From Alphaproteobacteria bacterium (GTDB lineage Bacteria; Pseudomonadota; Alphaproteobacteria; GCA-2731375), in assembly GCA_965225945.1 (NCBI GenBank), contig CBDDBZ010000037.1, forward strand, positions 160,001-224,000: a DNA stretch of 64,000 bases. Reading direction: 5' to 3'. The notes beneath the pieces are model-generated. The model saw only the letters and a list, made by a program, of their open reading frames with translations, ran no database searches and had not been told where the DNA came from. The translations under genes were made by a program, and so were the position numbers. Shown piece after piece: positions 14,113 through 31,065 of the stretch; within the stretch, counting starts at the first letter, position 1; each line of letters starts with the position of its first letter.

Positions 14113-15190
14113 GGTTCCGGTTCCTCAGGCTTCGAACCCGTCGCTCATTTCAACACGACGGTCACATTCGTCGGATTGGCGACGACGTCGTAAACCGCCG
14201 AACGCTTCTGCGACTGGGCGATGATCGCCTCGATGTCCTCGCGGCTGGCGTCGGCGTCGATGTCGTAAGTGATATTGATGCCGCCGAAGCCGTTGCGGAC
14301 CTCGTCGTCGATGCCGAGGATGCCTTGCAGGTCCATGTCGCCCTCGATCGTCGCGGTGACCGAGTTCAGTTGGATGTTGCGAAACTGGGCGACCGCGGCG
14401 ATGCCCGCCGTCAGACAACTGGCCAGCCCCACCAGGACGTATTCGACCGGCGTGGCACCCAGGTCCTCCGAGGCAAAAACCTCCGGGTGATCGGCATCGA
14501 AGGTAAAGGTCTTCGTAACTGCCCAGGTAGCTGATTTCGATGAGGCTGCGGATTGGGTCTCTGGGGGCAGATTTTGTGGGTTTGGGGCGCTGACGGCCTA
14601 GATTTCGTTTGACAGAGGGTGGTTGGTCGATTCTAAGGATTCGATGGATAGGGATGTTCTTGCCTTTTTGTCGAAAGACGAGCTGATCGATGTGGTGCTG
14701 GCCCAAGGGTCGCGGCTCGCCGAGTTCGAACTCCGGCTTGGTGAACTCGAGCGCCGGCTTGGCCTGAACAGCACGAACAGCGGCAAGCCACCGTCGAGCG
14801 ATGGATTGAACAAGCCACCGGCGGGTAAAAAGAAGCGCACCAGGAGCCTCCGTAAGAAATCGGCCCGCAAGCCGGGCGGGCAAAAGGGCCACAAGGGCGA
14901 GACCCTGCGCCAAGTCGCCGATCCCGACGCCACCGTCGACCATTATCCCGAGACGTGCCAGTGGTGTGGTTCGGGATTGACGCCGGATATGGCTACCGGC
15001 CATGGGGCCCGCCAGGTTTTCGATCTACCCGAGCCCCGGCCCCTGGTGGTCACGGAGCATCGGGCGCATCGCTGCCGTTGCGGGCATTGCGGCACGTACA
15101 CTCGGGCTTCTTTTCCCGTCGCCATCACCGGCCCGGTTCAATACGGCGCTCGGATCGGAGCCATGGTGGTCTACCTGTCGCACTACCAAC

Positions 15191-15977
15191 CTTGCCTATC
15201 CGGTTATCACCCACACCCACTATATGTAGTGTGTCTCCTTGGACTGCAGGCAAGGGCCGGCGCAGGCGCATTGAGGAGGCGATCCGGCTAATTCTTGATT
15301 GTTCTGAAAACCGAACCGGAGTTTAATTCACGTCACGTACTTAACATCGGGGGACGGAACGGTGGCGACCAAGGGAAAAACGAAGAAACCCACGGCCAGA
15401 CGGGAAGCTGCTGATGAAACGACATCGTCTGAGCGATTGACGGCACTAGTCGAACCCACTATATGTAGTGTGTCTCCCCAGGACTGCAAAGCGACGCGCT
15501 GGCACGAATCGTTGCGAAGAACCCGTCCGCGCCTGTTAGTCTCCTGCGCGTTTTGAGTCGCAGCGAAGACGAAGCGACACGCAAGAACGTGATCCTCAAT
15601 CCGTTTACTTCATATGACGTATTGAGCGAACTTGAAAACCAGTTCACAGAGCTATTTGTGAATAATCCGGCACTCGAATCCTACAATTCAATGAAGCTCT
15701 GATTTCCTGGAATATTCCATCGGTGTCGTTCACCTCCGATTTCAGATAAATTTCAATGAAGTGACGGTCCTTTATGCAACGTGGCGTTTTGCCAAATCCG
15801 ACTCAATGATTAGGATTTCCACCACGCTAAAGTGTCGCCTAAAAGGCGCTACAATGCCGTCCGAGTCCCTGCTCGGCATCGCCGGAGATATCTCCGCTTC
15901 GACCTGCACCGAGCTTTACTCAGGAAAATGGGTGCACACTACATATAGTGGGTGTGGGTGATAACCGGATAGGCAAG
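15191..15977. mobile_element. Non-autonomous TIR element with passenger gene, copy 1 (787 bp)
   Basis: Perfect 43-bp TIRs at 15191-15233 and 15935-15977; perfect 8-bp TSD CTACCAAC; no transposase; near-identical to 30311-31065. Confidence 0.95.
15362..15702 (+). pseudogene. LRV/HEAT-repeat passenger gene frameshifted by a TIR-derived insert
   Basis: Same sequence as 30482-30790 except that 33 nt (15455-15487) replace a single G. Confidence 0.8.
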
Positions 15978-17230
15978 CTACCAACTCCTGCCCGAGGACC
16001 GCCTGGCTGAATTGATGAAGGATCTGTTCGGGGCGGAACTGTCTCCGGCGAGCCTCGCGCGGATGGGCGGGAACAGCGCCGAGTCCGTCCAAGGCGTCGT
16101 CGATGTGATCCGCGAACTGGTGAAATCGGCGCCGGTCAAGCACATGGACGAGACCGGCTTGCGGATCGCCGGGCGGACCCAATGGTTGCACGTCGCCTCG
16201 ACCGCGCGGTTGACCTTCTATCGGGTCTCGGAGCGACGCGGCAGCCTGCTCGGCGGAGTCGGCGGCATCGTCGTCCATGACCACTGGAAGCCGTACTTTA
16301 CGATGGAGGGCGTACGGCACGCGCTGTGCAACGCCCATCACCTGCGCGAGTTGCAAGCCCTGATCGAGATCGAGAAGGAGGGCTGGGCACGCAAGATGCA
16401 GAGACTATTGCGCCGCGCCTGCCACGCGGTAAATCTCGCCCGGGAGCGGGGCGTGGCGCTGAAACCAGGCCTCGTCGAGCGCTTCCGAGGGTGTTACGAC
16501 GCGATCACGGCCGAGGGCATCGCCTTTCACGAGGCACAACCTCCTCTTGCGCCCAGATCGAGCAAGGCCAAGCGCCGGGGAAGCAAGCCGCGCCGCACCG
16601 GGCACAACCTTCTCCGGCGCCTTCAGACACACAAGGAAGACGCGCTGCGCTTCCTCATCAATTTCGCCGTGCCGTTCACCAACAATCAGGCCGAGCAGGA
16701 CGGGCGCATGATGAAGGTCAAGCAGAAAATCTCCGGCGGCTTCCGCAGCCAGAAAGGCGCCGAAGACTTTGCCACCGTCCGCGGCTTCATCTCGACCGCC
16801 AGAAAACAGGGCTGGAACATCATCCAGGCGCTCATGGAAAATCCCGAAACCCTGATCGAGCGTCTCCACGCCGCCTAAAAGGCCACCATGTACCTGGGCA
16901 GTTACAGGTCTTCTTGTGCATGTGCTCTTCGCCGAGGCCGAAGAAGCCTTCGACGGTCGAATGGCTGTAGGTGCCGTTCTTCCATTCGCAGGACGCGCGC
17001 CACATGAACTGGGCCGCTTCGGGCGCATCGGTCAGCGCCGTGCGCGCGCCGATCAGATGCTCGACGTTGACGCCGTTATTCGCTGTGCTTCCACCCTCGG
17101 ACATGTCGCCACTCCCTCTGTTGCCGCCAAGATGTTCCCTCTGCCCTGCACCATAGCAATGACAATGGTCGGGCGTCCAGGGAGCAATATCGGCGGGGTC
17201 CGGACCGACCTCGCGAGCCATTGCCGGCGG

Positions 17231-27168: not shown

Positions 27169-28263
27169 CGTCCCTATCCGGTTAAGGCAGGCAGCGCTCC
27201 CTGCGATTGTATACCGTCGACCAGTTCCCTGTAGGTGATGGTCGGTCGGGTCATGGCGCGGTGCAACACGAAATCGGCAAGGTCGAAGATGCGTTTGCGC
27301 CGGTTGAAGCGGTAGTTCCATTCCCGGACGTAGCGCGGCAAATGCTTGGCGCTCACCCCGTGGTAGGTTCCGTTGAGCCACGTCTTCACGTTGGAAAACA
27401 GGACATGGACGACCGGCATGAGCTGCTCGGCGTTCTTGCCTTGGCCTTGAACGACGGGCTGGTGGCGATAAGTATCGCCAAGCTTGGCGTAACTCTTGAA
27501 AGCGTCGCTGTCGAGGCGGCTTCCCGGCTTCACCGAGGCGCGCACGAAGTCGCCCAACTCACGGGCGGTGGCCTCGGGCAGGATGGCGAGCCGCGCGGCG
27601 CCGGCGGCGAAGCCGCTCCCCTTGATGCCCTTGCCCGACCCGACCGGCCACTTCTCGACCGCCATCACCAACAGGCTCTTGTTCGGGTTGGAAAGCCCGC
27701 GCCCCCGGCTCTCCGGCTTGCCCCGCCCGCCGTAATAGCTCTCGTCGACCTCGACCAAGCCCTCCAGCGGGAACTCCGGGCGCTCCGTCAGGGCATGGCG
27801 CAGCTTGTGGGCCATCAGCCAGGCGGTGTCGTAGCGCAGGCTCAACTCTCGCGACAGAAACAGCGCCGAGACCCCGCGCTTGTCGCGCCCCATCCACCAC
27901 GCCGCCAGGAACCATTTGCGCAACGGTGTGCGGGTGCGGTGGAAGACCGTGCCCGCGGTCACCGATTCCTGATGGCCGCAACCGGCGCATTCGAAGACCC
28001 GCGGCCGCGTCTTCAATTGGTAGTTCCGCCTCTCGCCGCAACGCGCGCAGACGTAGCCTTGCGGCCAGCGCAGCCGAGCCAGCGCCTCGATGCAGTCCGC
28101 CTCCGATCCATGGCGTTCGAGGAACTCCAATATCCCGCTCATCGAATAGTCCTCCAAAAGCTCCAGCCGATGCGATCAGCCTACACCTCTATGGAGAACA
28201 TATCAAGAACATTCGGAGCCCATCCTGCTTTAACCAGATAGGGACGTTAACCAGATAGGGACG
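27169..28263 (-). mobile_element. IS1595-family element (ISSod11-like) with a tandemly duplicated outer end
   Basis: 23-bp TIRs CGTCCCTATCCGGTTAAGGCAGG (27169-27191) and 28224-28246 match 21/23; extra 17-bp end copy at 28247-28263. Confidence 0.9.
27174..28142 (-). CDS. IS1595-family transposase
   Basis: Zn ribbon (RWPQGYVCARC..FECAGC), VEVDESYYGG, SDAFKSY and VHVLFSNVK..GTYHGVSAKHLPRY..EWNYRFNRR motifs. Confidence 0.95.
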   Translation of the reverse strand: MSGILEFLERHGSEADCIEALARLRWPQGYVCARCGERRNYQLKTRPRVFECAGCGHQESVTAGTVFHRTRTPLRKWFLAAWWMGRDKRGVSALFLSRELSLRYDTAWLMAHKLRHALTERPEFPLEGLVEVDESYYGGRGKPESRGRGLSNPNKSLLVMAVEKWPVGSGKGIKGSGFAAGAARLAILPEATARELGDFVRASVKPGSRLDSDAFKSYAKLGDTYRHQPVVQGQGKNAEQLMPVVHVLFSNVKTWLNGTYHGVSAKHLPRYVREWNYRFNRRKRIFDLADFVLHRAMTRPTITYRELVDGIQSQGALPALTG

Positions 28264-30310: not shown

Positions 30311-31065
30311 CTTGCCTATCCGGTTATCACCCACACCCACTATATGTAGTGTGTCTCCTTGGACTGCAGGCAAGGGCCGGCGCAGGCGCATTGAGGAGGC
30401 GATCCGGCTAATTCTTGATTGTTCTGAAAACCGAACCGGAGTTTAATTCACGTCACGTACTTAACATCGGGGGACGGAACGGTGGCGACCAAGGGAAAAA
30501 CGAAGAAACCCACGGCCAGACGGGAAGCTGCTGATGAAACGACATCGTCTGAGCGATTGACGGCACTAGTCGAAGAAAGCGACGCGCTGGCACGAATCGT
30601 TGCGAAGAACCCGTCCGCGCCTGTTAGTCTCCTGCGCGTTTTGAGTCGCAGCGAAGACGAAGCGACACGCAAGAACGTGATCCTCAATCCGTTTACTTCA
30701 TATGACGTATTGAGCGAACTTGAAAACCAGTTCACAGAGCTATTTGTGAATAATCCGGCACTCGAATCCTACAATTCAATGAAGCTCTGATTTCCTGGAA
30801 TATTCCATCGGTGTCGTTCACCTCCGATTTCAGATAAATTTCAATGAAGTGACGGTCCTTTATGCAACGTGGCGTTTTGCCAAATCCGACTCAATGATTA
30901 GGATTTCCACCACGCTAAAGTGTCGCCTAAAAGGCGCTACAATGCCGTCCGAGTCCCTGCTCGGCATCGCCGGAGATATCTCCGCTTCGACCTGCACCGA
31001 GCTTTACTCAGGAAAATGGGTGCACACTACATATAGTGGGTGTGGGTGATAACCGGATAGGCAAG
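30311..31065. mobile_element. Non-autonomous TIR element with passenger gene, copy 2 (755 bp, intact passenger)
   Basis: Perfect 43-bp TIRs at 30311-30353 and 31023-31065; flanks CTTCATCC / CTTCATAC match 7/8. Confidence 0.95.
30482..30790 (+). CDS. LRV/HEAT-like helical repeat protein, 102 aa (element passenger)
   Basis: Repeats VAKNPSAPVSLLRVLS, RKNVILNPFTSYDVLSEL and FVNNPAL; GGGGA RBS-like sequence before the GTG start. Confidence 0.7.
   Translation: MATKGKTKKPTARREAADETTSSERLTALVEESDALARIVAKNPSAPVSLLRVLSRSEDEATRKNVILNPFTSYDVLSELENQFTELFVNNPALESYNSMKL

Follow-up and report, generated by a model that had tools for sequence, protein, structure and literature searches.

The window, a 64,000-nt stretch of DNA, contains two copies of a transposase-less cassette derived from the IS1595 family, both delimited by reading the sequence. 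Copy 1 (787 bp; 15191–15977, plus strand) interrupts a gene for an IS66-family transposase, which runs over 14623–15190 and is resumed at 15986–16878. It is flanked by a perfect 8-bp target duplication, CTACCAAC, at 15183–15190 and 15978–15985. Copy 2 (30311–31065, plus strand) has the canonical 755-bp form, and its target duplication, CTTCATCC on one side and CTTCATAC on the other, shows one mismatch. The terminal inverted repeats of both copies are perfect and 43 bp long. They lie at 15191–15233 (plus) and 15935–15977 (minus) in copy 1, and at 30311–30353 (plus) and 31023–31065 (minus) in copy 2.

Positions 27–42 of each repeat are occupied by the palindrome CCACTATATGTAGTGT, which resembles the operator box of the repressor NrdR. 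The palindrome was located at 15217–15232 (plus; 20.8 bits with the NrdR matrix described below) and 15936–15951 (minus) in copy 1, and at 30337–30352 (plus) and 31024–31039 (minus) in copy 2. These four sites had been given by the first-pass annotation of this DNA, and a search of the window sequence returned all four exactly. The same annotation had placed the start of the motif 27 bases from the tip, which is true of each repeat end in both copies. What it had missed was a fifth exact copy, at 15456–15471 (plus). Five exact matches in the window compare with 0.01 expected from 100 shuffles. It had also been stated that the ends of the local IS1595 elements have only the outer CCTATCYGGTTA part in common with the cassette, and the palindrome is indeed absent from those ends. 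The transposase gene of the local IS1595, a distant type that we call type E, lies at 27213–28127 (minus), and its product is 36% identical to the transposase of type A, the closest autonomous kin of the cassette (described below).

The fifth copy of the palindrome belongs to an insertion of about 33 bp (15455–15487, plus) that is present in copy 1 alone, in a context with only one copy in the genome. The inserted sequence duplicates left-end positions 26–58 with few changes and without the terminal 25 bases; template switching and patch repair are possibilities for its origin. The insertion disrupts the passenger reading frame of the cassette. In copy 2, the passenger gene (30482–30790, plus) encodes 102 aa with a leucine-rich-repeat-variant domain (Pfam LRV_2; E 2.6e-8, 34.1 bits against a cut-off of 27), and in copy 1 it is broken by the insertion into 15362–15556 and 15553–15702. 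The cassette also carries a C-terminal remnant of an IS1595 transposase gene (30849–31049, plus; the equivalent in copy 1 is 15761–15961), which crosses the right-end palindrome. The last 66 codons have been kept in this remnant, and its product is 39% identical to the autonomous type A transposase over 79 aa (tblastn).

When the whole genome (6.27 Mb in 39 contigs, 66% G+C; assembly 96.55% complete) was searched, 152 exact copies of CCACTATATGTAGTGT were found, and a recognisable repeat tip preceded the palindrome in 148 of them. The exact 20-base repeat tips numbered 148, and 56 complete cassettes were recovered between two tips, 40 of them 755 bp long. The 8-bp target duplication was perfect in 42 of the 56 complete copies and had one mismatch in another four. 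The target consensus of the complete copies, G-w-T-y-r-A-w-C, has no likeness to the box. A cassette of the identical type, with the same 43-bp repeat, was present in three further genomes of the class (G002, G017, and G023). It also occurred in contigs assembled from public DNA and metatranscriptome runs, which carry no starts, strands or levels. The cassette is without a DDE transposase of its own and has the C-terminal stub only; for the candidate helper in trans, 11 tblastn matches in the genome span 325 or more of the 339 aa, with identities of 97% and above. The cassette is, in short, an ordinary but very successful transposase-less IS1595 element.

The IS1595 family was reportedly defined by Siguier et al. 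in 2009. Its members are numerous in this genome and fall into several types. Type A is 1105 bp long and is present in 11 near-full copies; its 339-aa product has the domains DDE_Tnp_IS1595 and Zn_ribbon_IS1595. The first 15 bases of its repeat are identical to those of the cassette repeat. At its right end, positions 27–42 read CCGCTACATGTAGGGT and lie within the codons for the C terminus of the transposase; at its left end, the palindrome position reads CCACTAGGGCTAGAAT. A promoter scan of type A returned a single site, TTTACA-17-TAGAAT, that matched at 10 of 12 positions (0.2 such sites expected) and whose TAGAAT coincides with the right arm of the palindrome. Types B and C, whose transposases are 43% and 40% identical to that of type A, have CGAGATGTTG, CAACATGTTG or CCAGATGTTG at the palindrome position. 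It may be noted that several type A copies are preceded by their own 3′ half, inverted and truncated (tblastn residues 177–339). This head-to-head arrangement is recurrent; it was seen at G000:C14:57696-58200 (G000 being the present genome) and, in similar form, in contigs C1, C15, C33, and C38. A search for solved structures related to the IS1595 transposase gave 0 matches.

NrdR is a bacterial repressor that senses dNTPs. The conserved positions of its box are C4, A6, A8, T9, T11, and G13 (PMC13584703), and CCACTATATGTAGTGT agrees with six out of six. The first-pass annotation had counted 14 matches in 16; against our consensus, ACACTATATATAGTGT, the motif departs at two of the 16 positions and keeps all six conserved ones. 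The consensus is that of a symmetrised matrix prepared from 36 boxes, which form 18 pairs upstream of the long nrdJ genes of relatives. Since these training boxes had been selected by at least five of the six conserved positions, the independent test rests on the flanks only. The motif scored 20.8 bits with this matrix, whereas the leave-one-out maximum for the relatives' nrdJ boxes was 20.3 bits. It thus ranked 1 of 37. It was identical at 15 of 16 positions to box 2 of one relative (locus L042). Other top matches of the matrix in the genome include the likely promoter of an HU-like gene. At the level of sequence, then, the claim of likeness to an NrdR box is true, and stronger than had been stated. 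Those refuting conditions of the first-pass annotation that can be checked by computation do not apply.

An NrdR site consists of two boxes 15–16 bp apart, with 26–27 bp tolerated too, and an isolated box is not bound by E. coli NrdR (PMC13584703). The same paper reports a mutational study in which C4, A6, T11, and G13 were the critical positions, and states that the central AT is replaceable while at least 63% A/T persists between C4 and G13. Each box is gripped by one zinc-ribbon pair and kinked by about 90 degrees (PMC9110341). At both ends of the cassette, the positions at which a partner box would be expected scored −10 to −28 bits, and therefore the operator architecture is absent. A flanking partner with five of the six core positions, at the 42/43 spacing, was seen at 3 of about 150 cassette ends. 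Among the related elements described below, a partner box (linker of 15, 16, 26, or 27; threshold 8 bits) was found at none of the 36 ends whose main box reached 10 bits, the best candidate scoring −2.4 bits. Moreover, the motif sits in transposon ends, away from the promoters of RNR genes or of nrdR. The likeness is real for a single box but not for an operator.

The gene nrdR, on whose presence the proposal of the first-pass annotation depended, was found in this genome and is intact (G000:C19:29291-29728; TIGR00244, 171.7 bits). Its product has the Zn_ribbon_NrdR and ATP-cone domains, with D15, R17, and the RRRR motif intact. Common origin of the zinc ribbons of NrdR and the transposase was considered and received no support from BLASTP, in which CPxCG alone was shared (E 0.39). 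The sole RNR gene detected was a short nrdJ (771 aa); a search of the genome, the assembly of which is 96.55% complete, found no gene for an RNR small subunit or for a class III enzyme. No box pair was present within 450 bp upstream of the short nrdJ, and none upstream of nrdR. When the regions upstream of the short nrdJ were compared in this genome and 19 relatives, a pair at the 31/32 spacing was found in 0 of 20, and a weak 5 + 4 pair at 42/43, far upstream, in 3 of the 20 loci. In the relatives, both same-genus genomes included, a further nrdJ encodes about 1250 aa and has a clear box pair upstream in 18 of 20 cases (loci L033–L054); the linker in these pairs is 15 bp, and 16 bp in one. 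This long nrdJ (~1250 aa) was not found in the present genome. NrdR may here be deprived of its usual target, or the long nrdJ may be unassembled. At G000:C38:400700-403400, IS630-type and IS256-type transposase genes lie beside the conserved downstream neighbour of the long nrdJ. Upstream of the short nrdJ (G000:C36:202066-202400; loci L002/L003) there are four tandem GGGGATAA(C) repeats, one perfect TGTGGATAA that resembles a DnaA box, and no NrdR box; the sequence hints at control of the short nrdJ by DnaA instead of NrdR.

Genome-wide scans for box pairs, carried out with the consensus and with the core positions, gave none at an RNR gene, and the counts were near chance expectation. The best pairs were located in rsmG/mnmE-type coding sequence near parA, at an IS630-like left end, and upstream of an unrelated small gene beside proC. 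The pair near proC is intergenic, upstream of the small gene adjoining proC (G000:C39:267926-267972; 12.7 + 14.7 bits, 15-bp linker). The sum of its scores equals that of the same-genus nrdJ operators; it may have arisen by chance, because a pair in coding sequence scores equally. The IS630-like left ends (G000:C18:17562, C29:12184, C29:49008, and C39:556268) carry a very good box of 18.7–20.6 bits and a second, weak one that follows exactly 15 bp downstream and overlaps the transposase start. Judged by the arrangement of the boxes, this is nearer to the true NrdR operator architecture than the cassette motif is. Within the window, an IS66-family left end (14564–14610, upstream of the tnpC start at 14623) contains GGGGCAGATTTTGTGG and GGCCTAGATTTCGTTT 15 bp apart. 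This pair of half-matches, which occurs at about 30 places in the genome, agrees in the core positions only and falls below the matrix threshold; it was rejected as an NrdR site and put down to chance.

The wider IS1595 family was sampled by scanning a collection of species-representative genomes with three transposases. Of the 79 loci obtained, 51 were taken to repeat finding, those left out being surplus copies from two dominant assemblies and partial matches. Credible repeats came from 38 of the 51 loci and amounted to 36 distinct elements. These elements are kin, and the counts given here do not represent independent events. As judged from the record titles, the hosts of the family belong to the Alpha-, Beta- and Gammaproteobacteria, Acidobacteriota, Gemmatimonadota, Actinomycetota, and NC10.

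The outer tip GCCTATCCGGTT is common to the related elements, and the palindromic module has a fixed offset, 20 bases beyond the TATC in the tip. C4, A6, T11, and G13 were all kept at the left end in 24 of the 36 elements and at the right end in 28, and 24 elements kept them at both. All six box positions were present at eight left ends and 25 right ends, and the matrix score reached 10 bits or more at both ends in 11 of 36 elements. Per-position conservation was highest at the tip and at the four box positions, and box positions 5, 7, and 10 drift, as does the spacer. The left arm (C4, A6) was conserved as well as the right arm. It had been suggested that a functional motif would be conserved while its neighbouring bases drift, and this is what was seen: the critical positions are kept in related elements, with drift in the bases that separate the motif from the tip. 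A central GG is seen in 13 of the 24 left ends in which the four positions survive. Left ends with the four positions and at least 5 of 8 A/T between C4 and G13 numbered 13 of 36, the lower limit given in PMC13584703 being 63%. At the right end, the amino acids encoded across the palindrome vary (HPTCSG, TTYSG, TYNML) while the DNA pattern is constant. The module was absent at both ends, with the tips kept, in 8 of 36 elements, whose transposases are 45–65% identical, and more distant elements (39–49% identity) retain it. We read the palindrome as an inherited, functionally constrained part of the repeat in one IS1595 clade.

The occurrence of nrdR was then compared with that of the module. 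Among hosts of elements with the module, 3 of 5 had a detected nrdR, as against 4 of 5 among hosts of relatives that lack it. It was not found in the hosts G032 and G033, which belong to orders where 21 of 31 and 38 of 41 genomes, respectively, have it. G033, an 8.6-Mb genome of the Bryobacterales (locus L117), contains at least 44 copies, 98–100% identical, of a 1027-bp module-bearing IS1595. The 3.4 kb that surround nrdR in a congener are likewise missing from G033, and because the whole neighbourhood is missing, the absence of nrdR there is possibly an assembly gap. The host survey leans, if anything, against a dependence on NrdR.

We consider it likely that the palindrome is the inner transposase-recognition module in the repeat of one IS1595 clade. 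This reading fits the fixed distance to the tip, the presence at both ends, the persistence at the right end despite amino-acid change, and the overlap with a −10 element at the left end. The repeat would be of two parts: an outer tip ending in GCCTATCCGGTT, at which cleavage would take place, and, separated from it by some 11 bases of variable spacer, the C-w-A-N4-T-w-G palindrome. The latter would most likely be bound by the transposase (zinc ribbon plus DDE domain), which would probably bend the DNA there. In autonomous elements, the copy at the left end includes the −10 hexamer of the promoter from which the transposase is expressed, so that binding there would silence this gene, and the copy at the right end lies within its last codons. 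The 755-bp cassette is a deletion derivative in which both ends survive and have been homogenised to a single, perfect repeat of 43 bp; the 1105-bp IS1595 of the same genome presumably mobilises it in trans. The likeness to an NrdR box would be a matter of convergence, both sites being palindromes with GC clamps and an AT-rich, kinkable core to which small domains bind in pairs.

Several points weigh against recognition by the transposase. Taken as a single box, the motif is, by its matrix score, the equal of any real NrdR box. The four positions conserved in the family are the same four that are critical for NrdR, a striking coincidence. The module is seemingly dispensable for some members, since 8 of the 36 lack it with their tips kept. 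To our knowledge, palindromic symmetry is not typical of transposase sites, which also counts against this reading.

The first-pass annotation had inferred that NrdR itself binds or bridges the two ends. If it truly did so, a dATP/ATP tetramer would place one zinc-ribbon pair on each end and, by bridging or blocking, couple transposition or passenger expression to dNTP status. We regard this as very improbable, even though nrdR is present and intact, the box score ranks at the top, and the critical positions are kept across the family at a constant distance from the tip. It can also be said for it that the strong NrdR-type boxes remaining in this genome are found only in mobile elements, the long nrdJ not having been found. 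One zinc-ribbon pair per box makes the bridging of two separate boxes geometrically conceivable (PMC9110341), but two boxes in cis at 15–16 or 26–27 bp are required and an isolated box is unbound (PMC13584703), and a partner box was present at 0 of 36 ends. By a rough estimate, a loop of 700 bp would be unable to match the effective concentration afforded by a 15-bp linker. Boxes of at least 10 bits at both ends occur in only 11 of 36 elements, and many left ends are GG-centred. The presence of the module does not appear to track nrdR (3 of 5 versus 4 of 5 hosts), and G033, without a detected nrdR, has its 44 or more module-bearing copies, although that absence may be an assembly gap. Much the same slim chance is given to a clade-wide version, in which an IS1595 clade spread over several phyla would carry one NrdR box 26 bp from each tip, and the dATP-loaded tetramer, by taking one box from each end or one end and a flanking box at a 26–27 bp linker, would gate synapsis or transposase expression according to dNTP status. 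Binding or bridging by NrdR therefore remains unsupported, as there is no partner box at the cassette or at the 36 related ends and the motif is a repeat module of the whole family. The annotation had named as its alternative a transposase-binding palindrome that resembles the box by chance. The transposase-binding palindrome is the better reading; the appeal to chance, however, may be too simple, because conservation rests on an identical set of four positions in the two systems.

The palindrome could also be a promoter remnant only. The parental −10 (of the alphaproteobacterial CTATAT / TAGTGT type) would then serve inward transcription of the passenger, and the right copy would be a by-product of homogenisation. 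This is unlikely, though the left end of the autonomous relative speaks for it, where the 10/12 promoter has the right arm of the palindrome as its −10. By eye, many related left ends read TTGAC(N)-17-TAG(T/A)(G/A)T, and the real NrdR box 1 of a same-genus relative is likewise located just downstream of a TTGACA. The likely HU-like gene promoter among the other best matrix matches points the same way. Yet a promoter scan of the cassette repeat finds no site, the left arm (C4, A6) is conserved equally with the right arm, and the module is better kept at right ends (28 versus 24 of 36), where no promoter is needed. Host-factor sites in the ends of insertion sequences are an established theme, which speaks for a site at which some other architectural protein of the host (IHF/HU-like) would bend the DNA and aid assembly of the transposition complex. 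The AT-rich kinkable core and the constant distance from the tip would suit such a role. On inspection, however, no match to the asymmetric IHF-type consensus was apparent, and the symmetry and GC clamps suggest a dimeric, sequence-specific binder; we hold this to be the least probable of the explanations considered.

Two-part repeats are familiar from insertion sequences: the outer domain serves cleavage and the inner one binding, often with an overlap with the left-end transposase promoter. The IS1595 ends described here are like these in their conserved tip, their variable spacer, a conserved inner module whose offset is the same at both ends, and the left-end −10 overlap. They are unlike them in that the inner module is palindromic and its conserved positions are those of the box of a host repressor. 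Among the titles and abstract openings screened, no such palindromic module is described for IS1595 ends, and likewise no NrdR box in an insertion-sequence end. We take the cassette to be of the kind of the mobile insertion cassettes, or MITE-like derivatives, of the IS1595 family. With these it shares the IS1595-type ends, the 8-bp target duplication, the lack of a transposase, a small passenger, and the many copies. Compared with a classical MITE, it is larger (755 bp) and has a coding passenger as well as a stub of the transposase gene. Its 43-bp repeats, which match perfectly, also exceed in length those of the presumed helper.

Sites for host factors are known in transposon ends, such as the DnaA box in IS50, the IHF sites in IS10 and IS1, and Dam sites. 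The coupling to the host cell cycle that the first-pass annotation proposed would be of this sort. However, sites of the IS50/IS10/IS1 type have been shown by binding and genetics, whereas the cassette offers a look-alike sequence without the operator architecture. The NrdR boxes of RNR promoters, as described in PMC13584703 and PMC9110341, are the same 16-bp partial palindrome with the same six positions and an AT-rich centre. In contrast to NrdR operators, the box of the cassette is single and unpaired, sits in a transposon end, and is present in about 150 copies per genome.

If NrdR did bind these ends, the elements would be the first family of transposons to be coupled to the cellular dNTP sensor, and they would provide a route for NrdR half-sites to spread through genomes. 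With about 150 boxes in a genome that apparently lacks an NrdR-controlled nrdJ, mobile elements would then be the main remaining targets of NrdR. The coincidence of positions raises the question whether C-w-A-N4-T-w-G is recognised by NrdR or by the zinc ribbon of the transposase. The case is also a well-documented caution against taking a lone box, however high its score, for an operator. Its value for the family lies in the description of a two-part IS1595 end, the palindromic inner module of which doubles as a promoter −10 and as coding sequence.
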